Shown: one piece after another, positions 1,245 through 61,310 of the stretch | Position numbering within the stretch: position 1 is the first letter of the stretch | Layout of the letters: each line of letters begins with the position of its first letter | Assembly: GCA_965226205.1 (NCBI GenBank) | Contig: CBDDCJ010000029.1 | Span: 20,667-84,666, forward strand | DNA length: 64,000 nt | Direction: 5' to 3' | From: Opitutales bacterium | GTDB lineage: Bacteria; Verrucomicrobiota; Verrucomicrobiia; Opitutales; UBA2987 | Notes under the pieces: model-generated | Database searches by the model: none | The model's input: the letters and a program-made list of their open reading frames with translations, nothing else | What the model was told of the DNA's origin: nothing | Position numbers and translations under genes: made by a program

Positions 1245-1397
1245 GGTTTCAGGTGTCAGGATGTGGAATATGGGATTCATGTGGTTTATAAATGGCAAGA
1301 GGGTTTATTTCGGATGAACTGTCAAGCGACTGCGATTTGAAAGGAATCACCGATAAGAGGAAAACACCACGTTTCCTGACACCTGACACCTGAAACC
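1245..1397. repeat. Intergenic inverted repeat built from CCTGACA heptamers
   Basis: GGTTTCAGGTGTCAGG (1245-1260) is the exact reverse complement of CCTGACACCTGAAACC (1382-1397). The right arm is a tandem CCTGACA CCTGACA CCTGAAA. The spacer is about 120 bp. It lies between the dehydrogenase stop and the kinase start. Confidence 0.7.
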
Positions 1398-1398
1398 C

Positions 1399-2379
1399 CT
1401 ATCCCCCTCCTCCCGGCTTGATGGGCACATCGTTGAATTGCGCCAGGGGTTTTTCTCCTCTCAGGGCGAGAATCAGGTTTTTTGTCGCCTTGGTGGCCTG
1501 CCGGACCACGCTCTCATAGGTGCGCGATCCGATGTGGGGCGTTATCAGGCAATTGGGCGCGCTGAACAGTGGATGGTCTTCCGGGGGCGGCTCCAGTTCG
1601 AGCACATCGGCGCCGTAACCGCCCACTTGCCCGCTTATTAGCGCTGCCACCATGGCGCCAGTATCGACCAGTTCCCCACGGGCGCAATTGATGACCAGAA
1701 CGCCTTTTTTCATGCGGCCGATGCTTTCCGCGTCGAGCATGTTGCGGGTCTCCGGGGTGAGGTTGGTGTGCAGAGTCACGATGTCGGAAGCGTTTAACAT
1801 TTCGCCCAGCGATTCGGCTCTCTTGACTCCGTGCCGGTCAGCGAATTCGCGGTCCCAATAGATGTCGTAGGCGAGCGTTTCCAGGCCGAAGGCTTTGGCC
1901 CGGATGGCCATTTCCTTGCCGATGCGGCCAAGACCGGCGATCCCGATTTTCCTGCCCATGATCTCACGGCCGGTAAGCCGTTTCCATTGGCCGGAGCGGG
2001 TGAAATTCACCTCTTCAACGAGGTTTCGTACCAGCGCCAATAGGAGGGCGAAACAATGCTCCGCCACCGTGGTGTGGTTGACGCCGGGGGTGAAGAGCAC
2101 GGGAATGCCAAGCTCGGTGGCGGCCTCGATATCGATTTTGTCCAGACCGATGCCGTACTTGCTTAAAACACGCAAACGGGGGAGGGCCTTTTCCAGCACC
2201 CGCCGGGTAATCCTGTCGTCCCCGCAAATGATGCCATCTACCTCGCCTACCAGTTCGAGGGTTTGCTCTTCGTTGAGAGGCCCCCGGGCGGTAATGATTT
2301 CATAACCGGTTTCGCGGAGCAGTTGATGATGCTCCCCAGGGATGTCCTGGAAAGAAGTCGTGGTAAGCAAAATAACCAT
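1399..2379 (-). CDS. D-isomer-specific 2-hydroxyacid dehydrogenase (SerA/GyaR-like)
   Basis: 326-aa ORF. It has a Rossmann motif GIAGLGRIGKEMA and the typical C-terminal TPHIGSRT segment. Confidence 0.85.
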   Translation of the reverse strand: MVILLTTTSFQDIPGEHHQLLRETGYEIITARGPLNEEQTLELVGEVDGIICGDDRITRRVLEKALPRLRVLSKYGIGLDKIDIEAATELGIPVLFTPGVNHTTVAEHCFALLLALVRNLVEEVNFTRSGQWKRLTGREIMGRKIGIAGLGRIGKEMAIRAKAFGLETLAYDIYWDREFADRHGVKRAESLGEMLNASDIVTLHTNLTPETRNMLDAESIGRMKKGVLVINCARGELVDTGAMVAALISGQVGGYGADVLELEPPPEDHPLFSAPNCLITPHIGSRTYESVVRQATKATKNLILALRGEKPLAQFNDVPIKPGGGG

Positions 2380-2438
2380 TTGTAATTAAATATTTTATAA
2401 TGATTGCCGTCCAAAATGTAAATGACCCGCTGCCGCAA

Positions 2439-3089
2439 TCAGGCGTATCCTCCCACCGCGATGCAATGGCAGGTCGTTCCCCCGAGGACGAACAGGTGCC
2501 AGATGAAATGGCAGTATTTTACCCTGTTATCAAGCGAGTAAAAAACCACTCCCAAAGTGTAGAAAAGCCCACCCGCAACAAGCCAGAAAAGCCCCCAGCC
2601 CGGAATAAGCAGCCACAACTGCTGGATGGCGATGACGGCCAGCCAGCCCATCAGGAGGTAGAGAAAGGTCGAGAAACGCGGGTAGCGCATGGGACCGAAA
2701 GCCTTGAGCACAACCCCTACCAGGGCCAGGCCCCAAATGACCCCGAAAAGCGTCCAACCCCAGGGACCGCGGAGCACGCCGAGCGTGAAGGGCGTATAGG
2801 TTCCGGCAATCAAAAGGAAAATAGCGGAGTGGTCGAGAACCTGAAAAACCTTTTTGGCCCGGTTCCTGGCCAAGGCATGATAGAGGGTCGAAATAAAATA
2901 GAGCAGCAGCATGGAAGCGCCGAAAATGCTGGCCCCCACGACCCCCGCCGCCCCGCCATGGCGAACGGCCATGACAATCAGAATCGGAGTGGCAACCAGT
3001 GCGCCCACCAGCCCAACGCCATGACTGACGCTATTGGCAATCTCCTCTCCCAGAGTCTGCGGGTGTTCTTCCATAGTTAGCGTTTTCAT
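2439..3089 (-). CDS. Hemolysin III / PAQR family membrane protein
   Basis: 216-aa hydrophobic ORF with family motifs LDHSAIFLLIAGTYTP and HFIWHLFVLGG. Confidence 0.8.
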   Translation of the reverse strand: MKTLTMEEHPQTLGEEIANSVSHGVGLVGALVATPILIVMAVRHGGAAGVVGASIFGASMLLLYFISTLYHALARNRAKKVFQVLDHSAIFLLIAGTYTPFTLGVLRGPWGWTLFGVIWGLALVGVVLKAFGPMRYPRFSTFLYLLMGWLAVIAIQQLWLLIPGWGLFWLVAGGLFYTLGVVFYSLDNRVKYCHFIWHLFVLGGTTCHCIAVGGYA

Positions 3090-3152
3090 TGCTTTATAGG
3101 CTCTTCGTCATTTTTGGGCGGGGAACTGTTTGTAGAGTTTTTTCGCCAATAT

Positions 3153-4127
3153 TCAGGACCGCAGGACGCCGGCGATTTGTTCCGTGAGGAAATTTTGATA
3201 GGTGGTTTTGAGTCCTTCCTCAAGCAAAATGCGCGGCTGCCAGCCGGTTTGCCGGATGAGGGAAATGTCCAAGAGTTTACGGGGTGGGCCATCCGGTTTG
3301 GTCGCATCGGTTAAAATCTTGCCTTCGAATCCCACTACCCGGCCGATGGTGCGGGCCAGTTCCAAAATGGAGACATCCGCGCCGGTTCCTACGTTTATCC
3401 AGTCGGGCGGGTTATTCAGTTGCAGAAGATGATAAACGGCTTCCGCCAGATCGTCCACATGGAGGAACTCCCTCCGAGGCGTCCCGCTGCCCCAGAGTGT
3501 GACTTCGCCGAGGTCTTTCTCCACCGCCTCGTGAAATCGCCGCAGGAGGGCGGGAATGACGTGGCTGTTTTGCGGGTGGTAGTTGTCACCCGGACCATAA
3601 AGATTGGTCGGCATGGCGGAGTGGAAGAGCGCCCCATGCTGCCGCCAGAAGAATTGGCAGAGCTTGAGGCCCGCGATTTTGGCCAGGGCGTAAGCCTCGT
3701 TGGTCGTCTCCAGAGGGCCGGTCAGGAGCGCCTCTTCGGTCATGGGTTGGGCCGCCTCGCGCGGGTAGATGCAGGAGCTGCCCAGAAAGAGCAGCCGGCG
3801 CACACCCGATTGGTGGGCCGCATGGATGACATTGAGGGCGATGGCCAGGTTGTCGTAAATGAAATCCGCCGGATAGGTGGCGTTGGCATGAATCCCTCCC
3901 ACCTTGGCGGCGGCCAAGATAACATGGTCTGGCTGTTTATTCTCGAAAAAGGACCGCACAGCCGCCGCCTGGCGCAAATCCAGCTCGTCGCGGGTGGCAG
4001 TGAGTAGATTTCGAAAACCTTTTGCCCGTAAATTCCTCACAATAGCGGACCCGACCATGCCTCGGTGCCCGGCCACGAATATGGAGTCATCCGGGTTGAT
4101 CATTTTGCTTTCCATTTCTCTCCACAA
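3153..4127 (-). CDS. fcl: GDP-L-fucose synthase
   Basis: 324-aa ORF. It has an SDR N-terminus [12 protein letters not shown] and a YALAKIAG (YxxxK) motif. It lies directly downstream of gmd. The start may be a few codons inside the ORF. Confidence 0.9.
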
Positions 4128-4136
4128 TGAAGGGCT

Positions 4137-5156
4137 CTATTTGCCCGACGAAGCCTGTTGGTAGGCCAGTTCATTTTCAGCCAATTCCAGGTCCGCCTCG
4201 ACCATGATTTGCACAAGTTTCTTGAAAGTCACCCGCGGTTCCCAATTCAAATGCTGCCGGGCTTTGGCCGGATCGCCGACGAGCAGATCGACTTCCGAGG
4301 GGCGTTCGTAGCGGGAATCACTTTTCACAAATTCCTTCCAGTCCAGATCGAGGAGCCCGAAGGCTTCCTGGCAAAACTCCCGCACGCTGTGGTTCTCGTT
4401 GGTGGCGATCACATAGTCCCCTGGCTTGTCCTGCTGCAGCATGAGCCACATGGCCTCGACATAATCGGGCGCGTAACCCCAATCGCGCCGGGCCTCCATG
4501 TTCCCGAGAAAAAGATTCTTCTGCAACCCCACCTTGATGCGGGTGGCGGCCCGCGTAATTTTGCGGGTGACAAAAGTTTCCCCCCGGCGGGGAGACTCGT
4601 GGTTGAAAAGGATGCCGTTGCTGGCGTGCAAATCATAGGCCTCCCGGTAGTTTACGGTTAACCAGTAGGAAAATACTTTGGCGCATCCATAAGGGGAACG
4701 AGGATAAAAAGGCGTGCTCTCGGTCTGGGGAACTTCCTGCACTTTACCATACATCTCGGAAGAAGATGCCTGGTAAAACCGCACTTTCTTTTCCAGGCCA
4801 GCCTCCCTTAATCCCTCCAACATGCGGACCGTGCCCAAGCCGGTGACATCCCCAGTATATTCCGGAATGTCAAAAGAAACGCGCACATGGCTCTGCGCTC
4901 CCAGGTTGTAGATCTCCTCCGGCTCGACATCGTAAAAAAGCTTGGCCAGGCGGCCTCCGTCCGAAAGATCGCCGAAATGAAGAAAGAGTCGGGTGCTGTC
5001 AATATGGGGGTCCTGATAAATATGATCGATGCGCGAGGTATTAAAAGTAGAGGCGCGCCGGATAATCCCATGCACCTCGTAATCCTTCTTGAGAAGCAAC
5101 TCGGCCAGATAAGAACCATCCTGCCCGGTGATTCCGGTTATAAATGCTCGTTTCAT
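4137..5156 (-). CDS. gmd: GDP-mannose 4,6-dehydratase
   Basis: ORF 4137..5183. Homology starts at [22 protein letters not shown] (internal Met at 5156). It has SSEMYG and YGCAKVF motifs. Confidence 0.92.
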
Positions 5157-13264: not shown

Positions 13265-13882
13265 ATGAATTCTGCGGCCAATCTACTTTTTATTTGGACC
13301 GATCAGCAGCGGGCCGACAGCCTGCCATGTTACGGCAACGCCTTTGCCTCCACGCCCCACCTGGATCGATTGGCGAGCGAAAGTTTCATCTTTGAGCGGG
13401 CCTACTGCACACAACCGGTTTGCACCCCTTCGAGGGCCTCCATTCTGACCGGGTTGTGGCCGCATACGCACGGCTGTATCAGCAACAACTACCCCCTCGC
13501 ACCGGAGAGTCGGACCATCGCGGAACAGGTCGGCGACCGTTATCACTGTGCCTATTACGGCAAGTGGCATCTGGGTGATGAGCTGTCTCCGCAGCATGGA
13601 TTCGATGACTGGGTCAGTATCGAGGACGGGATATACCGAGCCTACTACTCGGACTCGGAAATGCTTTAGCAACGCAGCAATTACCACCATTTCCTCATGC
13701 AGCAAGGGGTTCCCCCGATCAATAAGAGAAGGACGGGGATGGGAGAGTCTTTTCGCGATTTTTTTCGCTGCCTTGGCAGAACCCTATACCAAAGCGAGGC
13801 ATAGGCTGTTGAAGCCTGCTTTTTCAGTTATGAAGTCCAGAGTCCGTTCCACTCCTTCATCGTGCGAATCCCAGAGATAGGT
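13265..13882 (+). pseudogene. Sulfatase, in-frame TAG, frameshifts, 3' end lost at a MITE
   Basis: The N-terminus is LLFIWTDQQRADSL...CTPSRASILTGLWPH (C-x-P-x-R). There is an in-frame TAG at 13667-13669. Homology (..AALAEPYTKA..) continues in another frame. The sequence ends at the MITE and nothing resumes after it. Confidence 0.8.
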
Positions 13883-14182
13883 AGAGGCTGTCCCAAAGTT
13901 ATAACCATTTGTTTTACAGTAAGTTAACTTGTTTATAAAGCTGTCATAAAGACCGTTTTTAGGGGATTTTGGGCAATTTCGATGTCTATAACACCGTCAG
14001 CCTTTCTCTTGTTTTGCATATTCAAATACAATTCTACCATAGACCTCTGTCTGACGCGATTATATTTATAACGAAAAGAGGCCTTATACAGCGTTTTTGA
14101 CGGAATTGAATGACTTACGTTCCCTTACAGTTCGGAGTCGAATATCTCAATTCGCAAAATTCGGGTTTTTGGGACAGCCTCT
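13883..14182. mobile_element. 300-bp MITE, copy A1 (termini AGAGGCTGTCCCAAA), TSD AGGT
   Basis: 15-bp perfect terminal inverted repeats. AGGT is duplicated at 13879-13882 and 14183-14186. There is no ORF of note. Confidence 0.85.
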
Positions 14183-14293
14183 AGGTAAAAAGGGAAACAG
14201 TTTTCATCGTTATATTTTTCGATCTGGGACACTATTCTCAATTCTGATGATGGCTACTCTCTATTCCCGTTTCATACCCTCGCTCACATGCCA

Positions 14294-15374
14294 TCAGCGG
14301 TAAACGGCTTGAATCAAGGCCCTCATGAAACCGGCCGCAAATGCCCGCCCTTCCCGGTCCAGCCGGTCATTGGGAATTTGCGGTGTGTGGTCCATCATAA
14401 AAGGCCCTTTGAAACCAATATCGCGATAGGCGCGCATGGCTTCAAACATGTCCACATTTCCTTCATCCACAAATACTTCCTGGAAATCGTGAGGGCTTCC
14501 ACGGACATTGCGGAAATGAACATAGATAATTTTATTTTGCCGTCCCATTCGTCGTATGGTTTCGTAAACATCGACACCCATTTCGGTCACGCAGCCCTGG
14601 CAGAAAAGCATGCCGTGGACGGCGCTGGGCGCGAGTTGAAAAATCTTTTCGTAGTTCTCGATCGAGGAAACAATGCGCGGGTAGCCGCCAAAGGGTTCCG
14701 CTATCGGCGGGTCGTCGGGATGCAGGGCCAAACGCACACCGGCTTGTTCCGCCGCCGGAACAATGCGACGCAGCAGATATTGCAAATTTTCCCACATTTG
14801 TTCTTCCGGGATTTTCACCGGCTGATCTTTTTCCGATGAACTCCGCGCATATTCCCGATAGTTAAAACTGCTGTAGAGCGCGCCTCCGCGACCCTTTTGG
14901 GGAGTTGTGCGAAGGATGGTAATCGGTTTGAAGTTGTAACCGAAAAACGGAATCCCGACTTCTCCCATGGCTTTTAACAGGTTGCGCCACTGCTCGATTT
15001 TTTCATCCCTCCCGGGCAAACCGAGGGAAATGGCATGGGGACATCTTTTGCAAAGCGTTTGCAATTTCAGGCCGTGGGCCTCGGCCTTTTTTTTTCATGT
15101 CCTCACAGTAAACGGCCATTTCATCGAAGTTGTCCATTGGCGGGGGCGGATAAATGGACAGCGAGTCCACCCCGATTGCGCGGAAAAAATCCAGATTCTC
15201 AGCGCACACGAGATCTGCTGGCAATTGTTCCTGTATAGTGGCCTGATCGTTCAAAATGTTTGCCAGATAAGAAGGATAATCAAAACATAAGGCAATTGCG
15301 GATTCGTCAATGCATCTCGATATTATGATTAAATTTACTAATTTTTCCAGTGAGGACATTAAGCGCTGTAACAC
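14294..15374 (-). pseudogene. uxuA: Mannonate dehydratase, frameshift in an A9 run
   Basis: ORFs 15003..15374 and 14294..15064 join as ..EDMKKK|AEAHGLKLQTLCKRCPHAISLGLPGRDEKIEQW.. if the A9 run (T9 on the plus strand, 15087-15095) is read as A8. The C-terminal part is typical UxuA (..VHFRNVRG..FMMDHTP..). Confidence 0.8.
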
Positions 15375-16303
15375 TTAAGGGCCTCTGGTCTGCCATCCAT
15401 TCGCCCTGGGGAGAGGACGGCAGGCTTGATGAGGGCGCTCTGCGGCGCAATTGCCAAAAATTGGCCGCGGCCAAGGTGGACGGCATTTATACGACCGACA
15501 GCGACGGTGAGTTTTACGCCATTGAGTTGGATGAATTCCAGCGATTGGCGAAGGCCTTCGGGCGGGCCGTCGAGCCGACCGGGGTGGATGCCGCCATGGG
15601 CGTGACGTGGAGCCATACACAGGGAATCATCGACCGCATCAAGGCCTCATGCGAGGCTGGAGTGTCCAATGTGCATGTGGCCTTCCCGTTTTTCATGCCA
15701 CCGGCCAAGAGCGATGTTGACCGGTTCTGGGATGACTTGGCGGGGGCCGTCCCGCAAGCCCGATGGATCCACTATGCCCACCCCGGATGCGGACCGGCAT
15801 TGACCGGCATTGACTATGCCCGGCTCTCGGAAAGATTTCCCGAACAGTTTATCGGAACCAAAACCACCACCCAAATAACTTCTGCATTGACGGAGGTTTT
15901 GGCCAATTCGGGTCATCTGGCCCATTTTGTCGGTGAATTCACACTGACGCAAGGAATGCTGCTGGGGGCAAAAGGTTGCAACAGCTATTGGGTAAACATC
16001 ATGCCCGGATGGATGCGGAAATATTTTGATGTCTGCCTCGAAGGCGACTGGGCAACCGCAGCCCGTCTTCAAAAAAAATTGATAAAATGGGAACTTTCCG
16101 GGGTACAGCCGCTGCGCGATGCCGGGCATAGACACGCCATCATCGGCAAAGCCAGGGCCGAACTAACCGGCTGGCTGGAGGAATCGGGATGCACCCGCCC
16201 GCCTTATTATCCGGTTTCCCGGGAACTCATAACCGGTATGAAGAAAGCATTTGAGGAATACTGGGCTCATGAAATCGAGGAGGAAAAATTTCCGCAGTCT
16301 TAA
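15350..16303 (+). CDS. Dihydrodipicolinate synthase / N-acetylneuraminate lyase family protein
   Basis: 317-aa ORF (GTG start). DHDPS-family N-terminus GLWSAIHSPWGEDGRLDEGALRRNCQKLAAAKVDGIYTTDSDGEF. Confidence 0.7.
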   Translation: MRTLSAVTLKGLWSAIHSPWGEDGRLDEGALRRNCQKLAAAKVDGIYTTDSDGEFYAIELDEFQRLAKAFGRAVEPTGVDAAMGVTWSHTQGIIDRIKASCEAGVSNVHVAFPFFMPPAKSDVDRFWDDLAGAVPQARWIHYAHPGCGPALTGIDYARLSERFPEQFIGTKTTTQITSALTEVLANSGHLAHFVGEFTLTQGMLLGAKGCNSYWVNIMPGWMRKYFDVCLEGDWATAARLQKKLIKWELSGVQPLRDAGHRHAIIGKARAELTGWLEESGCTRPPYYPVSRELITGMKKAFEEYWAHEIEEEKFPQS

Positions 16304-16339
16304 TTTTCCAATTTTAATTTAAACGAACTTAAATTAGCT

Positions 16340-18234
16340 AGAGGCTGTCCCAAAAGGGTGATTTTTGCGAGGGGATTTTGAAGAGTGTTCATTTTAGTGG
16401 TATTTTCTTTTGGGAGGGGGTGACTTTGCTCTCCTATGACGTTAGGATTCTGGTTTTGGGGTCCGTTTGCCTGGTTTTCTTTGTATGGGCCGACAGTAGG
16501 CCTGTGAAAAAGTATTGTCCTTGCTTTTCCGGCCGACAGTAGGCCTGTGAAAAAGTATTGTCCTTGCTTTTCCGCTCTTTATTTAGGCCGCCGCTTTGGT
16601 TTTTAGTTCATCTTGCTGGGCCAGCATCTTGGCCACTTTCCATAGATTGTGCGAGAGGACCGACCAGGCTACGCTGATCGAGCGGTTGGCAAAGCCTTTG
16701 CTGCGCAATCGCCCGGCCTGCCAGCGATTCTTCAATACCCCGATCCGCCCTTCGGTGCTGGCCCGGCGCTTTTGCAATTGCCTGAAGTGTGGTTCCTCCA
16801 TCCGTTTTTTCAACTGCTTCGGATCGCGTGGACAGAGCGCATCGTAGATGCCCTCCTGGGCTAACTGCCGGCGGGCCCGCTGGGAGGCGAATCCCCGGTC
16901 CGCGCACATGGCCGCTATGGGTTCGGCTAGGTTGAAGCGGTTCTGTCTTTGCAAACTCTCTTGCATTTGTTCATTTTCGCTTGGCGTCCGGCTGCCGTAG
17001 AGTTTCCAGTCCAGCAGGTATCCTTCAACGCTTTCACCCAAAAACAGGGTGTTGCCAAACTCAACCTCTTGGCCCGCTTTGCCTCGCACAATCACCTGCG
17101 CATCGGGTTCGTAAACACTCAAAACTTTCTCTGCGTTTTTCACCTGGCGGCCGCCAATGCGTTTTTCACCTGGCGGCCGCCAATGATTCGCTCGTGCGCT
17201 TGCTTGATGACCACCGGGATTAGCTCGCTCATGCGCTCCATCCGGGTAAGGATCTGTTGGACCTGTTTTTCGCTGTAATCGCTTTGCTCCCAGCAGGCTT
17301 GCAATAATTCCCGGTGACTGCGGGCATGCTCCCCGATCCGTTTGAGCAGCTTTTTCATCTGCCTCAAGATACCCTTGCGTTGCCGCGCGCTGTCCTTTCG
17401 CCGCCGGCTGTGGGTCATCTGTATGCACAGCCGATTCATCTGCCGAGCCAAGGGCTCCGGTTCGATCGGCATGCGATGGCGCAAACCGGCCTTCTCACGG
17501 ATCAGCCGGATCGCTTTGAGCAGCGTGCCCGCTACATCCTTGAGCAGCACCCAGTCCGTCGGCCAATGAATGTTGACCTCCAAACAGGTGCCGTCGATCA
17601 GGCAAATGGTGGTGTCTATCGGCTTGTCCAATCCCACCACCTGCCGGGCCAGATCAGCATCGCCCACAACCTCAGTCAAGGTCCGGTGCAAGGCCCTCAA
17701 CTGCTCTTCGCTGAAAAACTTCGAGGCCCGTTCCAGGGTGCTCTTGGAGATGCCCCTTATGCCGTCGATATGACGGACACGACAAAAGTCAGCCAACAGA
17801 TCGCTGCTGCCCAGAGCCCTCGACAAATGCCGAAACGAAATCCCACCGAGCAGATAACGCAGCGTTTCCATACGCAACGCCTTGAGGGCAAAATTAGCCC
17901 GCTTTTGCCGGGCCTTTACACTCATTGGCTGGCCTCTTTCCAAGGCCAGATCAACGCCCTGCGATTCCACCTCCGAATCGATCAGCAGCCGGTCGATACG
18001 CTCGATGGTGGCGCGAAAGTTATCGTAATCGAGGCAACGGTCGACCACAGTTAAAGCTGGACGCAGGAGGCATTGGATGGCTATATTTTTCATAGAAAGG
18101 GCTATATTGATTTTCGCTAACGCAATTATAGAACCCTTTTTTAGCCGGATCGAGCAAAAAAATGCTCTTTCCGGCTATTTTTATAAACGTCATCCAGTTG
18201 ACTACAAAATCTTTATATTTTTGGGACAGCCTCT
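16340..18234 (-). mobile_element. IS copy 1 (IS5/IS1182-like DDE transposase), defective: 43-bp and 26-bp internal tandem duplications
   Basis: Termini are AGAGGCTGTCCCAAAA. It is 1895 bp, which equals the 1826-bp intact copy plus 43 (16488-16573) plus 26 (17133-17184). The 26-bp duplication splits the transposase into ORFs 17140..18093 and 16583..17428. The flanking 4-mers do not match (AGCT versus AAAT). Confidence 0.85.
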
Positions 18235-18436
18235 AAATAAAGAGCGGAAAAGCAAGGACAATACTTTTTCACAGGCGTACTGTCGGCCCATACAAAGAAA
18301 ACCAGGCAAACGGACCCCAAAACCAGAATCCTAACGTCATAGGAGAGCAAAGTCACCCCCTCCCAAAAGAAAATACCACTAAAATGAACACTCTTCAAAA
18401 TCCCCTCGCAAAAATCACCCTTTTGGGACAGCCTCT
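18235..18436 (+). repeat. Solo inverted copy of the IS left end (202 bp)
   Basis: It is the reverse complement of the first 202 bp of the IS (1 mismatch seen). It abuts the right IR of copy 1. Its inner breakpoint coincides with the transposase stop codon position. Confidence 0.85.
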
Positions 18437-20410
18437 ACACTACCAATTTTATTAAGGATTCCCCAATGAAAATTCTCGGATCTAACGCTTTGGATTTCCT
18501 TCAACTCGGCAGTAATAATTGGGTTGCCGGTTCGCAAAAGTCACCCGGTGGCAAGCCCATTATGGTTAATGACCCGCACTTTGACACCAAAATGCTGCCC
18601 ACGCCGATCTATTCTATAGGAATGTTCACCCCTGAATTAAGATCTGTTGGCGTGAATGTGCCTGGTATTCCGGGTTTATTGGTGGGCAGAAATGAATATG
18701 TCGCAGCCGGGGTAACCGTTGCTTATGGTGATGCCCAGGATTTGTATATTGAAACAATCGATCCGAATAATCCGGCTAACTATCTGGAGGGCAAAAAGTC
18801 GATTCCATTTGAAGTGATTGAACAAACCCTGAAAATCAAGGATGAAGATGATCCAAGTGGTTTCAGAACGGAAAAATTAACTATTCGCCTGACGAAACGA
18901 GGCCCCGTGATTTCGAATGTTCTGAAGGATTTTAAAACGGAAAAACTGGTCACTGTTCGCTATGCTCCCGTGGAAAGCATGCAACCTTCCCTGGGTCTGG
19001 ATTTTCTTTTGAAATCTAAATCGGTCGGAGACATAAAAAATTATTTGAAAGATATCACTACAGTATATTTGAATTTTGTTTTTGCTGATGTTCATGGTGG
19101 TATAGCTTGGCAGACTAGCGGAAGAATTCCTATTCGATCTAAAGGAAATGGTTCAGTTCCCTTTAAAGTAACAGATGATCAGGACAACTGGGCGGGCTGG
19201 ATTCCCTATGAGGAAATGCCTCAAAACTACCAACCAGATAGAGGATGGGTTGGTACCGCTAATCATAAAACGGTAACCAAAGATTACCCTTACTACTACT
19301 CTTCCCAGTTTTCCCCAAGTTATCGCTATCAACGTATGACCGAGTTACTGGACTCTCCAGGGAAAAAGACTGTGGACGATCATTGGAATTTCATGCGGGA
19401 CGATCTGAATGTTTTATCCAGAGCGATATCTCCCATTCTGGCCAAAGCTTTAATTGCCCAACCTGAGACTCGTAAAATGGGAGAAATATTAAACCAATGG
19501 GATTTTAGAGATAAAATTGATTCTCCCGCGCCAAGTATATTTCAGGAAACCTATCGAAACCTGGCCGGACTGGTTTTTAAAGATGAACTGGGAGAAGAGC
19601 TCGGTTCTTATTTGATCGGCAATAACTAGAGGCTGTCCCAAAGTTATAACCATTTGTTTTACAGTGAGTTAACTTGTTTATAAAGCTGTTATAAAGACCG
19701 TTTTTAGAGGATTTTGGGCAATTTCGATGTCTATAACACCGTCAGCCTTTCTCTTGTTTTGCATATTCAAATACAATTCTACCATAGACCTCTGTCTGAC
19801 GCGATTATATTTATAACGAAAAGAGGCCTTATACAGCGTTTTTGACGGAATTGAATGACTTACGTTCCCATACAGTTCGGAGTCGAATATTTCAATTCGC
19901 AAAATTCGGGTTTTTGGGACAGCCTCTAACTACTTCTGGCAGGAAAGACTGGGAATAATGATCAATGAGGGTGAATCCGAATGGTTTGACGATGTTAGCA
20001 CTAAGGATAAGATAGAAACCCTGACAGACCTGATACAAAAAGCTGGAATGAAAACGCGCGAGGATCTAATGGAGAGGATTGGTGATGATCCGGAAGACTG
20101 GCTTTGGGGGAAAATCCATCAAATAGAATTTCTTAACCCTATTCGAAGAAGCGGATTGGGAAAAGGCTGGTTAAGGGGAGGCTCTCATCCTATGGCAGGT
20201 TCAGGAGACACGATTTACCGCGCGCGTTTTTCTTTAAATCAAGAAGGCAACTTCGTAAAGGTTTCCGCTGCTCTCAGGATGGTGGCTGACCTGAACGATA
20301 ATGAAAAAGTGTTGGCGGTAATATCAGGTGGCGTCGTCGGGCGAACGTTCTCTCCTCACTTCACCGATCAAATCGAGGCCTATATGAGTGGAGAAAAAAT
20401 GTATTGGTGA
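18437..20410 (+). pseudogene. Penicillin/AHL acylase family (Ntn hydrolase), alpha-subunit region lost, split by a MITE
   Basis: The reading frame starts just before the beta-subunit nucleophile motif GSNNWVAG. ORFs 18466..19629 and 19958..20410 rejoin in frame as ..YLIGNNYFWQERLGIMINEGESEW.. when MITE A2 and one AACT are removed. Confidence 0.8.
19628..19927. mobile_element. 300-bp MITE, copy A2, TSD AACT
   Basis: It has the same termini as A1. By eye there are about 5 substitutions relative to A1. AACT is at 19624-19627 and 19928-19931. Confidence 0.9.
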
Positions 20411-21598
20411 TTCAGCGATGAAAAGATAGAAGAACATGCTCGCTCCGAATTACATTTAATTCCTTAAACTTCCCTTTGACGCAGAAACACTGAAAACTCC
20501 CGCACTCTAGGGACGCAATCAAATTTTGGCCAACAAAATGATGCAAAGGAATTTGCTCAAACTGGCGTCGCGGCTATTGGTTGGGCGAATAGGCTTTGTT
20601 TGGCCTCTTCCAGGTTTTGATGGACGGTCCATTTTTTATAGTCTTCGAATTCCTGGCAGGTTTTTGTGACTTGGGAACTGCCGGCCAGTGCGCCGGGCAC
20701 GGCCAGGTTTTCGCATTCTTCCAGCGCCTCGCCGATCAATTCAAATGTTTCCATATGGTATTCCTTAACCTCAAGGGCGTCGATAATAACTTTTCCGTAG
20801 CCGTCTTCGACCACTTCGGCCAGTTTGGTGGCGAGAATCTTTTGCATATCGTGTATATCCTTAAGGTCGCCATGGGGAATATTGATGATGAAATACTCGC
20901 CCTCTATGCGATAATATTTGCTCGTCATATCGATATGAAGAGTGCGCGCGATATTGGATTTTAATTCCACAAAATTGATCGGCTTGGTTACAATGGTGTT
21001 GAAACCCGATTCCTGCGCTTTGCGCTGCTCATCGACCGCCGTCTTGATGGAGAGTTCGAAAACGGGCACGCCACGGGTGCGGGCATTGGAGCGTAAAAAA
21101 CGAATCAAGGAGAAAGCCCCGTTCTCCGGCAGGGAGAGGCTTACGATGAGACGATCAACCTTATTCTGGAGCGTGTATTCCATCGCTTCGGAAGGCCCTT
21201 TGAGGCTTTTCACGACCCAGGAATTGCTGACCAGGTTTTCCCTGATCTGACGCACGATGATCGGTTTGTCGTCGATTAGAAGGATCTTCGCTCTGGCGAT
21301 GCTTTGAACGCCTTCTCCCAGTGGCACCGTTTGGGAATCGAGATTAGTCATTTCCGATGTCAATCCCTGTTCACCGATCTCTATTTTGAGAGTATCGAAA
21401 GTTTCCCGCAGTTCATCCAGAGCGACCTCCAGGGAATCGAGGCTGCTTTCGTTCAACTGGTCGATTTTTTCCACCGAATTCCTGAATTTGTAAGCGCCGA
21501 AAGTGAGGCAGGAGCCTTTCATCGCATCGAGGCGGGAGAGGGCCGGCAGAATATCGCCATCGGCTATCAGGTTTCTCGTATTGGCGATACCCTTATCT

Positions 21599-23424
21599 AG
21601 AGGCTGTCCCAAAAGGGTGATTTTTGCGAGGGGATTTTGAAGAGTGTTCATTTTAGTGGTATTTTCTTTTGGGAGGGGGTGACTTTGCTCTCCTATGACG
21701 TTAGGATTCTGGTTTTGGGGTCCGTTTGCCTGGTTTTCTTTGTATGGGCCGACAGTAGGCCTGTGAAAAAGTATTGTCCTTGCTTTTCCGCTCTTTATTT
21801 AGGCCGCCGCTTTGGTTTTTAGTTCATCTTGCTGGGCCAGCATCTTGGCCACTTTCCATAGATTGTGCGAGAGGACCGACCAGGCTACGCTGATCGAGCG
21901 GTTGGCAAAGCCTTTGCTGCGCAATCGCCCGGCCTGCCAGCGATTCTTCAATACCCCGATCCGCCCTTCGGTGCTGGCCCGGCGCTTTTGCAATTGCCTG
22001 AAGTGTGGTTCCTCCATCCGTTTTTTCAACTGCTTCGGATCGCGTGGACAGAGCGCATCGTAGATGCCCTCCTGGGCTAACTGCCGGCGGGCCCGCTGGG
22101 AGGCGAATCCCCGGTCCGCGCACATGGCCGCTATGGGTTCGGCTAGGTTGAAGCGGTTCTGTCTTTGCAAACTCTCTTGCATTTGTTCATTTTCGCTTGG
22201 CGTCCGGCTGCCGTAGAGTTTCCAGTCCAGCAGGTATCCTTCAACGCTTTCACCCAAAAACAGGGTGTTGCCAAACTCAACCTCTTGGCCCGCTTTGCCT
22301 CGCACAATCACCTGCGCATCGGGTTCGTAAACACTCAAAACTTTCTCTGCGTTTTTCACCTGGCGGCCGCCAATGATTCGCTCGTGCGCTTGCTTGATGA
22401 CCACCGGGATTAGCTCGCTCATACGCTCCATCCGGGTAAGGATCTGTTGGACCTGTTTTTCGCTGTAATCGCTTTGCTCCCAGCAGGCTTGCAATAATTC
22501 CCGGTGACTGCGGGCATGCTCCCCGATCCGTTTGAGCAGCTTTTTCATCTGCCTCAAGATACCCTTGCGTTGCCGCGCGCTGTCCTTTCGCCGCCGGCTG
22601 TGGGTCATCTGTATGCACAGCCGATTCATCTGCCGAGCCAAGGGCTCCGGTTCGATCGGCATGCGATGGCGCAAACCGGCCTTCTCACGGATCAGCCGGA
22701 TCGCTTTGAGCAGCGTGCCCGCTACATCCTTGAGCAGCACCCAGTCCGTCGGCCAATGAATGTTGACCTCCAAACAGGTGCCGTCGATCAGGCAAATGGT
22801 GGTGTCTATCGGCTTGTCCAATCCCACCACCTGCCGGGCCAGAAGGGCATCGCCCACAACCTCAGTCAAGGTCCGGTGCAAGGCCCTCAACTGCTCTTCG
22901 CTGAAAAACTTCGAGGCCCGTTCCAGGGTGCTCTTGGAGATGCCCCTTATGCCGTCGATATGGCGGACACGACAAAAGTCAGCCAACAGATCGCTGCTGC
23001 CCAGAGCCCTCGACAAATGCCGAAACGAAATCCCACCGAGCAGATAACGCAGCGTTTCCATACGCAACGCCTTGAGGGCAAAATTAGCCCGCTTTTGCCG
23101 GGCCTTTACACTCATTGGCTGGCCTCTTTCCAAGGCCAGATCAACGCCCTGCGATTCCACCTCCGAATCGATCAGCAGCCGGTCGATACGCTCGATGGTG
23201 GCGCGAAAGTTATCGTAATCGAGGCAACGGTCGACCACAGTTAAAGCTGGACGCAGGAGGCATTGGATGGCTATATTTTTCATAGAAAGGGCTATATTGA
23301 TTTTCGCTAACGCAATTATAGAACCCTTTTTTAGCCGGATCGAGCAAAAAAATGCTCTTTCTGGCTATTTTTATAAACGTCATCCAGTTGACTACAAAAT
23401 CTTTATATTTTTGGGACAGCCTCT
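21599..23424 (-). mobile_element. IS copy 2 (intact), 1826 bp, 16-bp TIR AGAGGCTGTCCCAAAA, TSD ATCT
   Basis: ATCT is at 21595-21598 and 23425-23428. It carries a single 494-aa transposase ORF. Confidence 0.9.
21799..23283 (-). CDS. DDE transposase (IS5/IS1182-like; family assignment uncertain)
   Basis: 494 aa. Candidate D-D-E context: LIDGTCLEVNIHWPTD, MCADRGFAS, STEGRIGVLKNRW. It also has the SVYEPDAQVIVRGKAGQEVEFGN motif typical of IS5-superfamily enzymes. Confidence 0.8.
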   Translation of the reverse strand: MKNIAIQCLLRPALTVVDRCLDYDNFRATIERIDRLLIDSEVESQGVDLALERGQPMSVKARQKRANFALKALRMETLRYLLGGISFRHLSRALGSSDLLADFCRVRHIDGIRGISKSTLERASKFFSEEQLRALHRTLTEVVGDALLARQVVGLDKPIDTTICLIDGTCLEVNIHWPTDWVLLKDVAGTLLKAIRLIREKAGLRHRMPIEPEPLARQMNRLCIQMTHSRRRKDSARQRKGILRQMKKLLKRIGEHARSHRELLQACWEQSDYSEKQVQQILTRMERMSELIPVVIKQAHERIIGGRQVKNAEKVLSVYEPDAQVIVRGKAGQEVEFGNTLFLGESVEGYLLDWKLYGSRTPSENEQMQESLQRQNRFNLAEPIAAMCADRGFASQRARRQLAQEGIYDALCPRDPKQLKKRMEEPHFRQLQKRRASTEGRIGVLKNRWQAGRLRSKGFANRSISVAWSVLSHNLWKVAKMLAQQDELKTKAAA

Positions 23425-23571
23425 ATCTAGGTCCGTTATGAATAATTCGAGAATTTTGAGATAGCGCACATAGTCGATTTCGAGCCGGGAGATGACCACC
23501 TCGGGATCCGTCAACACTTCATTGGACATTTTGCTTTTGACGGGAATTCTATCCGCTACTTTGCGCACTTG

Positions 23572-48825: not shown

Positions 48826-49125
48826 AGAGGCTGTCCCAAAAACCCGAATTTTGCGAATTGAGATATTCGACTCCGAACTGTAAGGGAACGTAAGTCATTC
48901 AATTCCGTCAAAAACGCTGTATAAGGCCTCTTTTCGTTATAAATATAATCGCGTCAGACAGAGGTCTATGATAGAATTGTATTTGAATATGCAAAACAAG
49001 AGAAAGGCTGACAGTGTTATAGACATCGAAATTGCCCAAAATCCCCCAAAAACGGTCTTTATGACAGCTTTATAAACAAGTTAACTTACTGTAAAACAAA
49101 TGGTTATAACTTTGGGACAGCCTCT
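48826..49125. mobile_element. 300-bp MITE, copy A3 (inverted relative to A1), TSD ACTT
   Basis: ACTT at 48822-48825 and 49126-49129. The site is intergenic. Confidence 0.9.
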
Positions 49126-49222: not shown

Positions 49223-49297
49223 TGGAGGCGCGGGTCGGAATCGAACCGACGTGTAGAGGATTTGCAGTCCCCGGCCTTACCACTTGGCTACCGCGCC
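49223..49297 (-). tRNA. tRNA-Cys (anticodon GCA), U73 and CCA encoded
   Basis: The reverse complement folds as follows: acceptor GGCGCGG/CCGCGCC, anticodon stem GGGGA/TCCTC with loop CTGCAAA, T arm GTCGG-TTCGATT-CCGAC, then TCCA. Confidence 0.9.
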
Positions 49298-54572: not shown

Positions 54573-56685
54573 CCTTAACAGGCTGTTGAAAAAGACTGGC
54601 TTACTTAGTGGAAGAAACTAAAGTGTCAGGATGCGTGGTAAGATAAATAAACAAACGGATATGCTGGCCTTGATCAACCTGGAAGATCGCATCCCAGCGA
54701 AGCACCCGATCCGCCGCATTAAGGCGATGGTGGACGAAGTGCTCAGGGGGATGAGCGGTACCTTCGATGAGATGTATGAGTCACAGGGACGCGCCTCGAT
54801 ACCGCCGGAGCGTCTGCTCAAAGCGAAGGTACTGATGGCGCTCTATACGGTGCGCAGCGAACGGCAGTTGTGCGAACGGTTGCGCTACGACCTGCTCTTC
54901 CAGTGGTTTCTGCAGATGAACCCATGCGAGTCCGTTTTCGACCATTCGGTCTTCTCCAAAAACATGACTCGATTGCTCGAACACGGCACCTCTGAAATCT
55001 TCTTCGCCGAGGTCGTCGAGTTGGCGCGCCGACACGACTGGGTAAGCAACGAACACTTCAGCGTGGACGTCGATGAAAAGCTTTCGTCCGAAAGAAGAGA
55101 CTGAGGACGGCACCGATCAGCCCGAGGGCAACGGCTGGCAAGATTACAAAGGACAAAAACGCAGTAACCAAACACACGCCAGTCGCACCGACTCGGAGGC
55201 TCACCTGCTCAAAAAAGGCAAAGGCAAGGAAGCCAAACTGTGCTTCAACGCGCACGCGGTAATGGAAAACCGCAACGGACTGTGCGTGCTCATGGACGTG
55301 ACCGCCTCGGTCGGCAGAACCGAAGCGCAACAAGCCAGCGACCAACTGGACGAACTGTGCATGCGCGGATTCGAGCCACGCACTGTCGGAGCCGATGCCG
55401 GCTACCACACCAAAGCCTTTGTGCGGGAGTGCCGAGACCGTGAGATCGAACCTCACGTGGCCCCCCACGGCGGACGTAAAACACGGTAGTGTATAAAAAA
55501 AGAATGTTATTTTGTATTTTTAGCTGTACAGATAGCGTTAGGCAGTTTATTCTTAGTGCATGGTTACTAAAATTATTAATTGTCGGCACTGTGGAAGTGA
55601 AAATATCATTAAATTTGGCAAGACGCCCAACCATAAACAGCGCTACCGCTGCCATGATTGTGGTAAACAAAGCCGCGAAAACCCCACAGTGAAATACACC
55701 GAAGAGCAAAAAGAAATGATCCTTCGAGTCTATCAGGAACGCAGCAGTCTACGCGGTTTACAGCGCGCCTTCGGGGTGAGTCCCAACACCGTTTTGAGTT
55801 GGTTAAAAAAAACGACAATCGCTGCGACCGCTCAAAAGCACGATTCTTGCGGCCCGCCGCCATGATGTCATTGAACTGGACGAACTGTGGTCTTTTGTGG
55901 GACGCAAGAGCGATGCCCAATGGGTTTGGATCGCTCTTTGCCGACGCACCCGTCAAATCCTCTCCTATGCCATTGGGCCTCGGGATTGGTATCGTTGCCG
56001 GGAACTTTACGAGCGTCTGCCACGGGCCTACAAAAGATGTGCCACCTACAGCGACTTTTGGTCCACTTATGATGAAGTCTTTCCTCATAACCGATCCGTG
56101 GGAAAAGAAACCGGTGAAACGGCCCATGTGGAACGATGGAACAATACCCTGCGCCAACGACTGGGTCGTTTCACACGCAAAACCCTCTCCTTTTCCAAGC
56201 TTAAGAGTATGCATGAAACCTGTCTGAGACTTTTCATTCATCAATATAATCAAGAATTAGCCACCATTCCTACTTAATACACTACCTAAAACACCTGGTC
56301 TGGACGGCAGGCACCGCCGTGGCCAACGCTACCGTGCCAGCCAAAAAGTGCGCAAGCGGATCGAAGAAATCTTCGGCTGGGTAAAGACCACCGGAGGCTT
56401 CCGCAAAAGCCGCTACCGGGGCGTGGCCCGCACCCATCTGAGCGCCCACTTCGTCACCGCCGCATGCAACCTTGTGCGAATGGCCAAACTGGCCGAACAG
56501 CCACCACCCATGTTAGCCGGGGCCTAACGGCCCCAAGGCCCCGCTATGCCCCGAGGGGTAATACGGGGCCAGAAATCAACACCAAATCCTTAAAAACGCC
56601 TTATAATGAACCGCAAACATACCTTCTCGGGCCTGTCACGACCTGTCGATAGCTCAATAGTGCGTTTTTCAACAACCTGTTAAGG
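54573..56685 (+). mobile_element. IS5-family element (defective) carrying a nested IS1-family copy; TSD TTCA
   Basis: The IRs are CCTTAACAGGCTGTTGAAAAAG (54573..) and the reverse complement of GTTTTTCAACAACCTGTTAAGG (..56685), matching 20/22. TTCA is at 54569-54572 and 56686-56689. The transposase is in three pieces. Piece one is 54631..55104 (..LCERLRYDLLFQWF..HFSVD). Piece two is 55073..55489, reached after a roughly 22-nt deletion and frameshift (MKSFRPKE..). The C-terminus at 56287..56527 (..RKRIEEIFGWVKTTGGFRKSRYRG..) lies beyond the IS1 insertion. Confidence 0.85.
55485..56286 (+). mobile_element. IS1-family copy C1 (802 bp), nested in the IS5-family element, TSD TAAAACAC
   Basis: The ends are GGTAGTGTATAAAA and TTAATACACTACC. 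insA is at 55560..55865 (zinc finger CRHCGS..CHDCG plus HTH). The insB frame is from about 55810 to 56277 (DELWSFVGRKSDAQWVWIAL..SDFW..HVERWNNTLRQRLGRFTRKTLSFSK). There is an A8 run at 55805-55812. Confidence 0.9.
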
Positions 56686-56746: not shown

Positions 56747-57548
56747 GGTAGTGTATAAAAAAAGAATGTTATTTTGTATTTTTAGCTGTACAAATAGCGT
56801 TAGGCAGTTTATTCTTAGTGCATGGTTACTAAAATTATTAATTGTCGGCACTGTGGAAGTGAAAATATCATTAAATTTGGCAAGACGCCCAACCATAAAC
56901 AGCGCTACCGCTGCCATGATTGTGGTAAACAAAGCCGCGAAAACCCCACAGTGAAATACACCGAAGAGCAAAAAGAAATGATCCTTCGAGTCTATCAGGA
57001 ACGCAGCAGTCTACGCGGTTTACAGCGCGCCTTCGGGGTGAGTCCCAACACCGTTTTGAGTTGGTTAAAAAAAACGACAATCGCTGCGACCGCTCAAAAG
57101 CACGATTCTTGCGGCCCGCCGCCATGATGTCATTGAACTGGACGAACTGTGGTCTTTTGTGGGACGCAAGAGCGATGCCCAATGGGTTTGGATCGCTCTT
57201 TGCCGACGCACCCGTCAAATCCTCTCCTATGCCATTGGGCCTCGGGATTGGTATCGTTGCCGGGAACTTTACGAGCGCCTGCCACGGGCCTACAAAAGAT
57301 GTGCCACCTACAGCGACTTTTGGTCCACTTATGATGAAGTCTTTCCTCATAACCGATCCGTGGGAAAAGAAACCGGTGAAACGGCCCATGTGGAACGATG
57401 GAACAATACCCTGCGCCAACGACTGGGTCGTTTCACACGCAAAACCCTCTCCTTTTCCAAGCTTAAGAGTATGCATGAAACCTGTCTGAGACTTTTCATT
57501 CATCAATATAATCAAGAATTAGCCACCATTCCTACTTAATACACTACC
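56747..57548 (+). mobile_element. IS1-family copy C2 (802 bp), TSD CATCAGGA
   Basis: The 8-bp repeat is at 56739-56746 and 57549-57556. insA is at 56822..57127 and insB at ..57539. It has an A8 run. Confidence 0.9.
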
Positions 57549-57887
57549 CATCAGGACTTGTTCAATGTTTTCAGGATTGACAAAATATATTCTGTGCTTT
57601 TCCCCATTTAATTTTTTCAATCGTGAAAATACTTTTTTTTCCTCTTTTGTATTAGGAGTTCTCATATCTGTTATTATAAAAACCGATCTGTTAGGATGTT
57701 TTTCTATTAACTGTTCCTGCTTTTTCCGCAATCTAGAAAGAAGGTATTTTGGAACTTTACCAACCGGCCTATTACCGATTTTTCGTTTATCGATAACTAT
57801 TAATATAAAATCAGCAGTCTCATTTATTGTAGCAAATTTCATTTGGGTTTCAGTCGAATCACGAACGCAAAACTCAATCTCATCGTC

Positions 57888-58689
57888 GGTAGTGTATTAA
57901 GTAGGAATGGTGGCTAATTCTTGATTATATTGATGAATGAAAAGTCTCAGACAGGTTTCATGCATACTCTTAAGCTTGGAAAAGGAGAGGGTTTTGCGTG
58001 TGAAACGACCCAGTCGTTGGCGCAGGGTATTGTTCCATCGTTCCACATGGGCCGTTTCACCGGTTTCTTTTCCCACGGATCGGTTATGAGGAAAGACTTC
58101 ATCATAAGTGGACCAAAAGTCGCTGTAGGTGGCACATCTTTTGTAGGCCCGTGGCAGGCGCTCGTAAAGTTCCCGACAACGATACCAATCCCGAGGCCCA
58201 ATGGCATAGGAGAGGATTTGACGGGTGCGTCGGCAAAGAGCGATCCAAACCCATTGGGCATCGCTCTTGCGCCCCACAAAAGACCACAGTTCGTCCAGTT
58301 CAATGACATCATGACGGCGGGCCGCAAGAATCGTGCTTTTGAGCGGTCGCAGCGATTGTCGTTTTTTTTAACCAACTCAAAACGGTGTTGGGACTCACCC
58401 CGAAGGCGCGCTGTAAACCGCGTAGACTGCTGCGTTCCTGATAGACTCGAAGGATCATTTCTTTTTGCTCTTCGGTGTATTTCACTGTGGGGTTTTCGCG
58501 GCTTTGTTTACCACAATCATGGCAGCGGTAGCGCTGTTTATGGTTGGGCGTCTTGCCAAATTTAATGATATTTTCACTTCCACAGTGCCGACAATTAATA
58601 ATTTTAGTAACCATGCACTAAGAATAAACTGCCTAACGCTATTTGTACAGCTAAAAATACAAAATAACATTCTTTTTTTATACACTACC
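57888..58689 (-). mobile_element. IS1-family copy C3 (802 bp, inverted), TSD TCATCGTC
   Basis: The 8-bp repeat is at 57880-57887 and 58690-58697. insA is at 58309..58614 (minus) and insB at 57897.. (minus). It has a T8 run on the plus strand. Confidence 0.9.
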
Positions 58690-59493
58690 TCATCGTCTTC
58701 TTTACCACTAACCACAAAATGCCAAGACATTATAGCGACGTTTGGTTTTCTTTGTTCACCTTTTAGGTATTAACCTATTCTATCTACGTTAATTATTGCG
58801 CCTGTTGTATGATCGGGCTGGCCTCCTATAAGCGTCGGTTTTGCGATTCCGTGAGCATCCATTTGCAGCCACTGGGCAACAAACAAGTTATTAGTGATTA
58901 TTTCTTGAGCATTTAATACTAGACGTGATTTAGGATATTGAAGACAGCGAAAGGTTGTAGAGCCGGCATCTACAAGAAGTTGAGGACGGGGGATTATATC
59001 CAAAATTAATTTTGAAATTCTTGCTGTTATATGAGCTAGCTCTTCATACCTGTTGTTCACAAGTCTTTCATACATACTTGCATATGAAAACCAATGAACG
59101 CCTGGAATTACGTTTATGATCTCTTCATTATTATCTGCCCATCCTAAACCTAGCCAAGGATAAGTTTTAATAAATTCATCTATTCTTTCGTGTATATCTT
59201 CGATTGTCAGATATTGCTTTAATTTCTCTAATTCATCTCGGTTCCCAAACCCCATATCTTTTAATGTCTGTATTAAATTCTCCATGTGGAATTTTATTAC
59301 CAAGAGATGTGTATCAATTACTAGGCGTTGACGTTCATCGCCATTGATCGCCTGCACCAATACACCCAATAGAAGAATTTCGACAATTTTTTTTCTACTT
59401 TTTTCTTGCTTGTTCATAGGAATAAAAGTAAGGCTAACTGAGAGCCCATAATATGGTGGTCCTTTGAGAAAAAGGTTTTACCTTCGAATTTTT

Positions 59494-60313: not shown

Positions 60314-60346
60314 CGAATTTTTAAAGATTGAACTGTTTTCTGCACG

Positions 60347-61276: not shown

Positions 61277-61310
61277 CTAATCGGTATTGAAAACTAATCG
61301 GTATTGAAAA
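61277..61310. repeat. Perfect tandem 17-mer x2 (CTAATCGGTATTGAAAA)
   Basis: The units are at 61277-61293 and 61294-61310, about 270 bp upstream of the cassette start at 61006. Confidence 0.8.

Follow-up and report, generated by a model that had tools for sequence, protein, structure and literature searches.

We analyzed a 64,000-nt stretch of DNA from an Opitutales bacterium (assembly GCA_965226205.1, contig CBDDCJ010000029.1, positions 20,667 to 84,666; hereafter, the window) and found that it very probably carries a standard transposon pair, namely, an autonomous insertion sequence (IS) and a non-autonomous miniature inverted-repeat transposable element (MITE) with the same ends. The anatomy of the elements, the identity among their copies, the target duplications, the target consensus, the reading frames restored upon removal of the elements, and one empty orthologous site were all directly observed. 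The IS is 1824 bp long, with perfect 15-nt terminal repeats and one open reading frame (ORF), and the MITE is 298 bp long; both start with GAGGCTGTCCC and end with GGGACAGCCTC. Their common terminal inverted repeat is identical over 14–15 nt; the 14 nt GAGGCTGTCCCAAA at both ends of the MITE equal both IS ends, with 15 nt shared at one end. Both elements are inserted at sites of the consensus TA-N2-3-TA, which are duplicated as 6 or 7 bp. The relevant features of the window are as follows.

13884 to 14181, (+) strand: MITE copy 1 (M1), intergenic, with TAGGTA at 13878-13883 and 14182-14187; equal to the four-copy consensus.
16341 to 18233, (−) strand: defective IS (IS copy 1), 1893 bp, with the transposase split into ORFs 16583-17428 and 17140-18093.
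18234 to 18435, (+) strand: remnant of a third IS copy in inverted orientation, matching IS positions 1-202 as their reverse complement except for 1 mismatch.
19629 to 19926, (+) strand: MITE copy 2 (M2), in a penicillin-amidase gene (fragments 18466-19629 and 19958-20410), with duplication TAACTA.
21594 to 21599 (left) and 23424 to 23429 (right): flank sequence of the intact IS, target duplication TATCTA.
21600 to 23423, (−) strand: intact IS (IS copy 2), 1824 bp, GAGGCTGTCCC...GGGACAGCCTC, in an Hpt/REC gene.
21799 to 23283, (−) strand: transposase gene, an uninterrupted ORF for a 494-aa DDE-type protein.
48827 to 49124, (−) strand: MITE copy 3 (M3), intergenic, ~100 bp from a tRNA gene (49226-49297), with duplication TACTTA.
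63534 to 63831, (−) strand: MITE copy 4 (M4), in radC, with the 7-bp duplication TATTTTA at 63527-63533 and 63832-63838.

The 15-mer AGAGGCTGTCCCAAA has 13 exact matches in the window, whereas over 100 shuffles it averaged 0.11 matches and peaked at 1. These are the 13 termini that a preliminary description of this DNA had placed at the same coordinates, and all of them can be assigned: to the four MITEs, the intact IS, the defective IS, and the 203-bp remnant of the third IS. The same description had listed four elements, which we indeed found to be exactly 300 bp each under its limits (13883-14182, 19628-19927, 48826-49125, and 63533-63832, the last two in reverse orientation), an intact IS of 1826 bp (21599-23424), and a defective one of 1895 bp (16340-18234). 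The intact copy has the uninterrupted 494-aa ORF expected of it, and in the defective copy the frame is broken by a tandem duplication. Relative to IS copy 2, IS copy 1 has 6 substitutions and carries two perfect tandem duplications, one of 43 bp in the non-coding part (16488-16530) and one of 26 bp in the transposase gene (17132-17157), the latter shifting the frame. As for the 15–16 bp with which all elements were said to begin and end, the shared termini stand, but the terminal A and T belong to the duplication and not to the element, which gives the corrected limits used here.

Removal of an element together with one copy of its duplication restored the frames of the amidase gene (M2), radC (M4), and the Hpt/REC gene (IS copy 2), just as had been claimed, with a continuous 572-codon penicillin-amidase frame in the first case and a 394-codon Hpt/REC frame in the last. 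The amidase gene was in fact damaged twice, as about the first 163 positions of its profile are missing as well (fragment 18466-19629 starts at position 164 of 675). For radC, the protein collection contains P0154, a 141-aa N-terminal fragment of RadC that reads into the MITE (...EEVYRYF-RGCPKNPNFAN) and reproduces the M4 junction exactly. Among full-length RadC proteins, the best match is P0150 (91% identity), whose gene has the same mfd-rotamase-radC neighborhood in a sister metagenome-assembled genome (MAG) named 'Opitutales bacterium,' where the orthologous site reads as a single, uninterrupted CATTTTA. This empty site confirms the insertion but does not distinguish a 5-bp from a 7-bp duplication because both predict the same empty site. 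Separately, the 3′ radC fragment of the window contains (CCA)14 followed by (GCA)n at 63938-64000, running to the end of the window; this run is absent from the orthologous P0150, which continues ...TSGTATTSLAHPREV.

The four MITEs differ from one another by 3–8 substitutions (97.3–99% pairwise identity) in a star-like pattern, with copy 1 equal to the consensus and the others bearing 5, 3, and 3 private changes; the five differences between the first two copies that had been estimated by eye were also the number counted. The four copies lack any conserved ORF, and all six frames are interrupted. The element is thus small and gene-less, has inverted repeats and target duplications, occurs in dispersed copies, and uses the ends and target of an autonomous element, all of which characterize a MITE. 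To extend the sample, 15 further full IS copies were fetched from assembly ERZ28669063 via two transposase variants, and MITE relatives were sought via translated MITE ORFs in the protein collection (nine ORF products; 4 of the 7 products looked up gave loci, and P0142, P0143, and P0146 had no record). Loci L128 and L149 are further copies of the MITE, and relatives 80–90% identical to it occur in three other metagenomes (L146–L148).

L146 (JGI 3300082567): 86.7% identical to the window MITE, with duplication TATATA.
L147 (JGI 3300009139): 80% identical to the window MITE, with a decayed duplication, TAGTCTG / TAGGCTA.
L148 (ENA ERZ23498356): 90% identical, partial, with the left end missing.
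L149 (ENA ERZ21829562): ~99% identical, a 510-bp rearranged variant, with duplication TATATTA.

The terminal repeat is kept in all MITE copies and in the 80–90% identical relatives, with one changed base in one arm of L147. Two of these loci are complex. In L149, the 510-bp variant (1359-1868) has ~210 bp repeated and an intact 7-bp duplication, and the repeat junction, CCCAAAA, is present both in the terminal repeat and in an internal look-alike (GGGATTTTGGG). In L128 (16-3482), an IS3-family element with the ends TGAAGTGGACGGGG... interrupts the MITE and in turn carries the IS studied here with TAGGTTA; the flanks of that MITE, TAGCATA and TACAGTA, are unmatched.

Across the IS and MITE insertions with matching flanks, the duplication measured 6 bp in 14 cases and 7 bp in 6, and every one had the form TA..TA or TA..TG.

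6-bp duplications (14): M1, M2, M3, IS copy 2, L001, L002 (both copies), L003, L006, L007, L010, L127, L129, and L146.
7-bp duplications (6): M4 (TATTTTA), L005 (TATGATA), L041 (TATTCTA), L126 (TAATTTA), the IS in L128 (TAGGTTA), and L149 (TATATTA).

The duplications of the MITE match those of the IS, with three of 6 bp and one of 7 bp in the window, as well as TATATA in L146 and TATATTA in L149. Copies without matching flanks, such as IS copy 1 (left flank TAGCTA, right flank TAAATA, no target duplication pair), still bear TA..TA on each side. A more distant, ~67% identical IS in a 'Ca. Moanabacter' MAG likewise has both lengths of duplication, namely, TAAATA, TATTTA, TACAGTA, TAGGCTA, and TAGAATA. 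In that genome, the flanks of copies without a matching pair recur at other copies: L131 has on its left the flank that L130 has on its right, and its own right flank recurs on the left of L133, a cross-copy pairing that is the signature of inversions between copies. Copies L130–L139 of this Moanabacter-type IS (assembly ERZ26167216) have a left end, GAGCCCGTCCCAGTGG, and a right end, GAGGCTGTCCCAAATCC, that differ from each other, and their flanks TAGGTA and TAGTTA pair between copies several hundred kb apart, again indicating inversions. As a side observation, TA-NN-TA occurs 85 times in the window, compared with ~220 expected from base composition by our own estimate, and 10 of the 85 are duplication copies flanking the four 6-bp insertions.

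Based on these features, the transposase would bind the shared ends GAGGCTGTCCCAAA(A) on either the IS or the MITE and insert the element at a TA-N2-3-TA site via cuts staggered by 6 or 7 bp; gap repair would then duplicate the whole site and leave each flank with a valid target once more. Regeneration of the target on both flanks would explain abutting elements that share one duplication (L127 and product P0142). In L127, head-to-tail copies abut at 1361-4485 as IS-TAGTTA-IS with a single shared duplication, and product P0142 spells ...TTTGGGACAGCCTC TATATA GAGGCTGTCCC..., which fits repeated insertion into a regenerated target. Tentatively, the transposase might set its strand-transfer sites by two TA half-sites rather than by a fixed stagger; this idea is more of a suggestion than an expectation, and such recognition would explain why both 6- and 7-bp duplications are always bounded by TA...TA (or TG). 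To our knowledge, no target reader with flexible spacing has been characterized for IS4/IS5-type DDE transposases. The variable 6/7-bp duplication bounded by TA half-sites is the only mildly unusual feature of the system.

The earlier proposal that the MITE is mobilized in trans by the co-resident IS is supported by the ends, the TA..TA target, and the mix of 6- and 7-bp duplications that the two elements have in common, and we infer that this transposase moves the MITE, by staggered-cut chemistry. Several observations weigh against this pairing. The case for trans-mobilization consists of the shared ends and target. Beyond the terminal 15–16 nt, end-anchored alignments of the MITE and the IS gave z-scores of ≤1.7. 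The MITE copies are also several-fold more diverged than the IS copies, and MITE movement may have stopped earlier than that of the IS: the window MITEs lie 0–1.7% (mean 0.9%) from their four-copy consensus, compared with 0.2–0.3% from a 17-copy consensus for the window IS copies (the intact IS differs by 6 substitutions) and 0–0.2% for the fetched IS copies, a value biased low because these copies were chosen by identical protein. Finally, the transposase scores under the curated cutoff of every NCBIfam IS model, and its family placement is therefore approximate.

The absence of a significant match past 15–16 nt leaves room for a closer autonomous partner that we did not see, i.e., a different element of the same lineage that mobilizes or once mobilized the MITE, that would match the MITE in its subterminal sequence, and that would share with the present IS only the ancestral terminal repeat. 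One MITE end had been thought to resemble the IS beyond the termini, and a short motif is possible there, as the MITE end GAATTTTGCGAA faces GATTTTTGCGAG of the transposase-distal IS end with a possible subterminal GA-TTTTGCGA motif, but the alignment is not significant. Derivation of the MITE interior from the IS by deletion was likewise rejected (best local alignment score of 15 versus a shuffle mean of 11.9 and maximum of 16), and the claim that the interior is not IS-derived agrees with both this lack of significant similarity and its GC content (38% versus 54% in the IS; 51% in the window). The main argument for such a partner comes from one MITE end, termed B, whose 46 nt match at 45/46, 44/46, and 46/46 positions in L146, L147, and L148, respectively, compared with 69–94% identity in interior segments and no special conservation of the other, non-B end in the same loci. 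This conservation suggests a protein-binding site extending past the part shared with the IS, and the greater divergence of the MITE copies points in the same direction. However, all recovered relatives of the IS (L041, L140, and L141 at 88–92% identity; others at ~67%) have an IS-type or a third type of subterminal sequence, never the MITE type; the ~150 kb of fetched flanks contain no second autonomous element with these termini; and the duplication length and target of the MITE are indistinguishable from those of the IS. We therefore regard a separate partner as unlikely and favor mobilization of the MITE by the IS described here.

The duplication length also bears on an alternative anatomy, in which elements of 1826 and 300 bp with A...T ends make 4-bp (rarely 5-bp) duplications in T|ANNT|A. 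The 4-bp target duplications of the preliminary description are actually the inner part of 6-bp (in M4, 7-bp) duplications: each such repeat has a T directly before its left copy and an A directly after its right copy, and the element then 'begins' with A and 'ends' with T. At canonical sites, either anatomy fits, i.e., 4 bp in T|ANNT|A with A...T ends or a 6-bp TANNTA with GAGGCTGTCCC...GGGACAGCCTC, and both predict the same sequence for 18 canonical insertions; the first-base A is found even in the Moanabacter-type IS, at ~67% identity. The two remaining insertions, both among the IS copies fetched from ERZ28669063, separate them, as L006 reads TAGGTG|GAGG...CCTC|TAGGTG and L129 reads TATCTG|GAGG...CCTC|TATCTG. 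Thus, when the base before GAGG was compared with the sixth base of the right repeat in 20 matched insertions, 18 were A/A, 2 were G/G, and none were mixed (p ~0.005 by our own Fisher estimate). TA precedes 52 of the 54 element ends and TG the other 2. Because the G appears in L006 and L129 exactly where the right-hand sixth base is G, the base before GAGG belongs to the duplication; nor is the G one inherited mutation, given that L006 and L129 code for distinct protein variants, P0040 and P0051.

Annotated relatives lead to the same assignment. ISRtr6, an ISRjo3-family element, and an ISNCY element of Mycobacterium paragordonae are each flanked on both sides by TAGCTA, like the IS target here, and a Skermanella element is flanked by TAGTACTA. 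Because the TA..TA block lies outside the unrelated inverted repeats of these named relatives, it is the target and not part of the element, although the exact duplication length cannot be read from single copies of the relatives because their flanks are palindromic. The 4-bp anatomy is accordingly very improbable. A family using another duplication length had been put forward as a point that could overturn the pairing; the corrected 6–7 bp matches the ISNCY relatives annotated by the Prokaryotic Genome Annotation Pipeline (PGAP), and the wrong 4-bp length is an error of observation, not of interpretation.

Lastly, the host might maintain the 300-bp repeat for a function of its own, as a small RNA, a regulatory module, or a REP-like structure, with the transposon-like ends being incidental to its spread, an idea to which we give next to no credence. 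In its favor, the interior is not IS-derived, the 80–90% relatives persist in other metagenomes, and folding, a check proposed earlier, gave whole-element z-scores of −2.2 and −3.8 for the (+) and (−) strands, respectively. However, this signal is that of the terminal-repeat stem because the interior alone folds no better than shuffles (z = +1.7 and +0.15), and the element has no Rfam match even at E ≤1, no excess of promoter-like or terminator-like sites, and no conserved ORF, destroys genes with two of its four copies, and in relatives diverges faster in its interior than at its B end. The recent activity that had been claimed for the elements is borne out by their low divergence, by the frames that read through once they are removed, and by the intact radC of the sister MAG. 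The MITE family as a whole is old; in the window its copies are young, though somewhat older on average than those of the IS.

Next, we examined the placement of the 494-aa transposase. It matches the Pfam domain DDE_Tnp_1 with 27 bits, and the best NCBIfam model is ISNCY_1 ('ISNCY family transposase,' NF033593), which scored 212.8 bits against a cutoff of 325 over model positions 54-443 of 444; IS5_1 scored 118.7 bits against a cutoff of 275, and other IS5 models scored ≤18 bits. Homology to the ISNCY family is thus clear, and the curated membership threshold is not reached. In an alignment of eight sequences (the window protein, three close relatives, and four plasmid elements, i.e., ISRtr6, an ISRjo3-family element, and those of Mycobacterium and Skermanella), the candidate catalytic triad D167, D390, and E439 is invariant, as is R435, and the triad residues lie in the usual DxT, ADRG, and R-x3-E contexts. 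The nearest annotated plasmid relatives found by tblastn are 24–29% identical over the aligned part and carry the PGAP labels ISNCY, ISRtr6-family, and ISRjo3-family; in the eight-sequence alignment, identity to ISRtr6 and the ISRjo3-family element is 22–27%. Judged from these alignments, the IS appears to be a distant member of the ISNCY lineage that holds ISRtr6 and ISRjo3, with an IS4/IS5-type DDE transposase, a placement that is approximate. The IS5 family, with which JGI labels relatives of 60–64% identity ('IS5 family transposase'), was rejected given these IS5 model scores and the duplication of 6–7 bp, in contrast to the 3–4 bp of the IS5 and IS1031 groups.

The protein collection contains more than 90 near-identical variants of the transposase; the window's own exact sequence has no record in it, and the near-identical variants were used instead. 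An IS with 92% identity to the one described here lies in 'MAG: Opitutales bacterium', and another with ~67% identity lies in 'Ca. Moanabacter sp.', Moanabacter being a lineage of marine Verrucomicrobiota (PMC6256433). The names given to RadC relatives are Opitutaceae or Opitutae. A scan of GTDB genomes (596 Gb) with a 14-mer returned mostly chance matches, as a query this short would in so large a set, the informative ones among the matches listed being loci in Opitutales and Moanabacter MAGs. A scan of JGI metagenomes with a MITE-specific 29-mer gave no matches, and a scan with a degenerate end pattern gave only two IS relatives. From these affiliations, the host is probably an uncultured marine Opitutales bacterium carrying many copies of this IS.

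The region at 16335-18442 shows how the IS copies may have reshaped the amidase locus. The third-IS remnant, which covers ~203 nt of the transposase-distal IS end, adjoins IS copy 1, and the 13th terminus (18422-18436) is its end, with the outer flank TACACTA (18436-18442). The TAAATA (18234-18239) at the site holding IS copy 1 equals the sequence of the intact IS at the corresponding position. In the simplest history, IS copy 1 would have entered the canonical TAAATA site of an inverted third IS copy lying in the amidase gene, and an adjacent deletion would then have taken the rest of that copy along with the 5′ part of the gene. The start of the amidase fragment at Pfam profile position 164 of 675 agrees with this deletion history.

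Other repeats are also present in the window. Four copies of an unrelated ~805-bp IS1-family element lie within 5 kb (55485-56287, 56747-57549, 57888-58691 [inverted], and 59494-60314); the element has the ends GGTAGTGTAT...ATACACTACC and an A8 run at the likely frameshift site, and it scores 165 bits with the NCBIfam IS1 model. In addition, the 64 kb contains four perfect two-copy tandem duplications with units of 43, 26, 19, and 17 bp (16488-16573, 17132-17183, 60115-60152, and 61277-61310, respectively). The defective IS contains two of the four, and a third is found in the fourth IS1-family copy, which has A7 and not A8. Replication slippage, a repair defect, and an assembly artifact are candidate causes, and radC is itself disrupted in this genome.

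The value of these results is mostly practical, and they open no new question. They provide correct limits, duplication length, and target for an abundant and apparently undescribed Opitutales IS and its MITE, allow the amidase, radC, and Hpt/REC fragments to be annotated as transposon-disrupted pseudogenes, make IS-mediated inversions and deletions recognizable in these long-read MAGs, and add a MITE partner to the poorly characterized ISNCY (ISRtr6/ISRjo3-like) lineage. They also document heavy recent mobile-element activity, with two IS copies, a 203-bp piece of another, four MITEs, and four IS1-family copies in 64 kb.

Our limited literature search found no MITE described for this IS lineage, the ISNCY family, or Verrucomicrobiota. 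Compared with known systems, the IS resembles the ISRtr6/ISRjo3 lineage in having a single ORF for an IS4/IS5-type DDE transposase (~445–494 aa) that aligns over its whole length with the residues D, D, and E, and in its size (~1.6–1.7 kb between the repeats of the four plasmid elements versus 1824 bp here). It differs from this lineage in amino acid sequence (22–27% identity), in its inverted repeats (GTTTCCG... and CTTCGACCTGAAAAA versus GAGGCTGTCCCAAA here), and in its target, which is TAGCTA at the few named copies examined and a relaxed TA-NN-TA / TA-NNN-TA here. ISfinder assigns ISRtr6 and ISRjo3 to the 'ISDol1' group of ISNCY, with lengths of 1.6–1.9 kb and 6–7-bp repeats, values that would suit the present IS; the literature searched gave no usable definition of this group. 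With the IS5 family, the element shares the transposase superfamily (DDE_Tnp_1, as well as the 118.7 bits with IS5_1), but the IS5 models score well under ISNCY_1. IS5-group elements likewise prefer short, TA-containing palindromic targets (YTAR), but they make duplications of 4 or 3 bp, and measure ~1.0–1.5 kb. Bacterial MITEs paired with an IS by terminal repeats only include RUP with IS630-Spn1 in Streptococcus pneumoniae and Nezha with an ISNpu3-like element in cyanobacteria. Like these, the MITE described here is small and gene-less, has the repeats and duplication of its IS, occurs in many copies in and between genes, and has an unrelated interior; it differs in transposase lineage and host phylum. 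The IS and its MITE are thus a pair of an ordinary bacterial kind.

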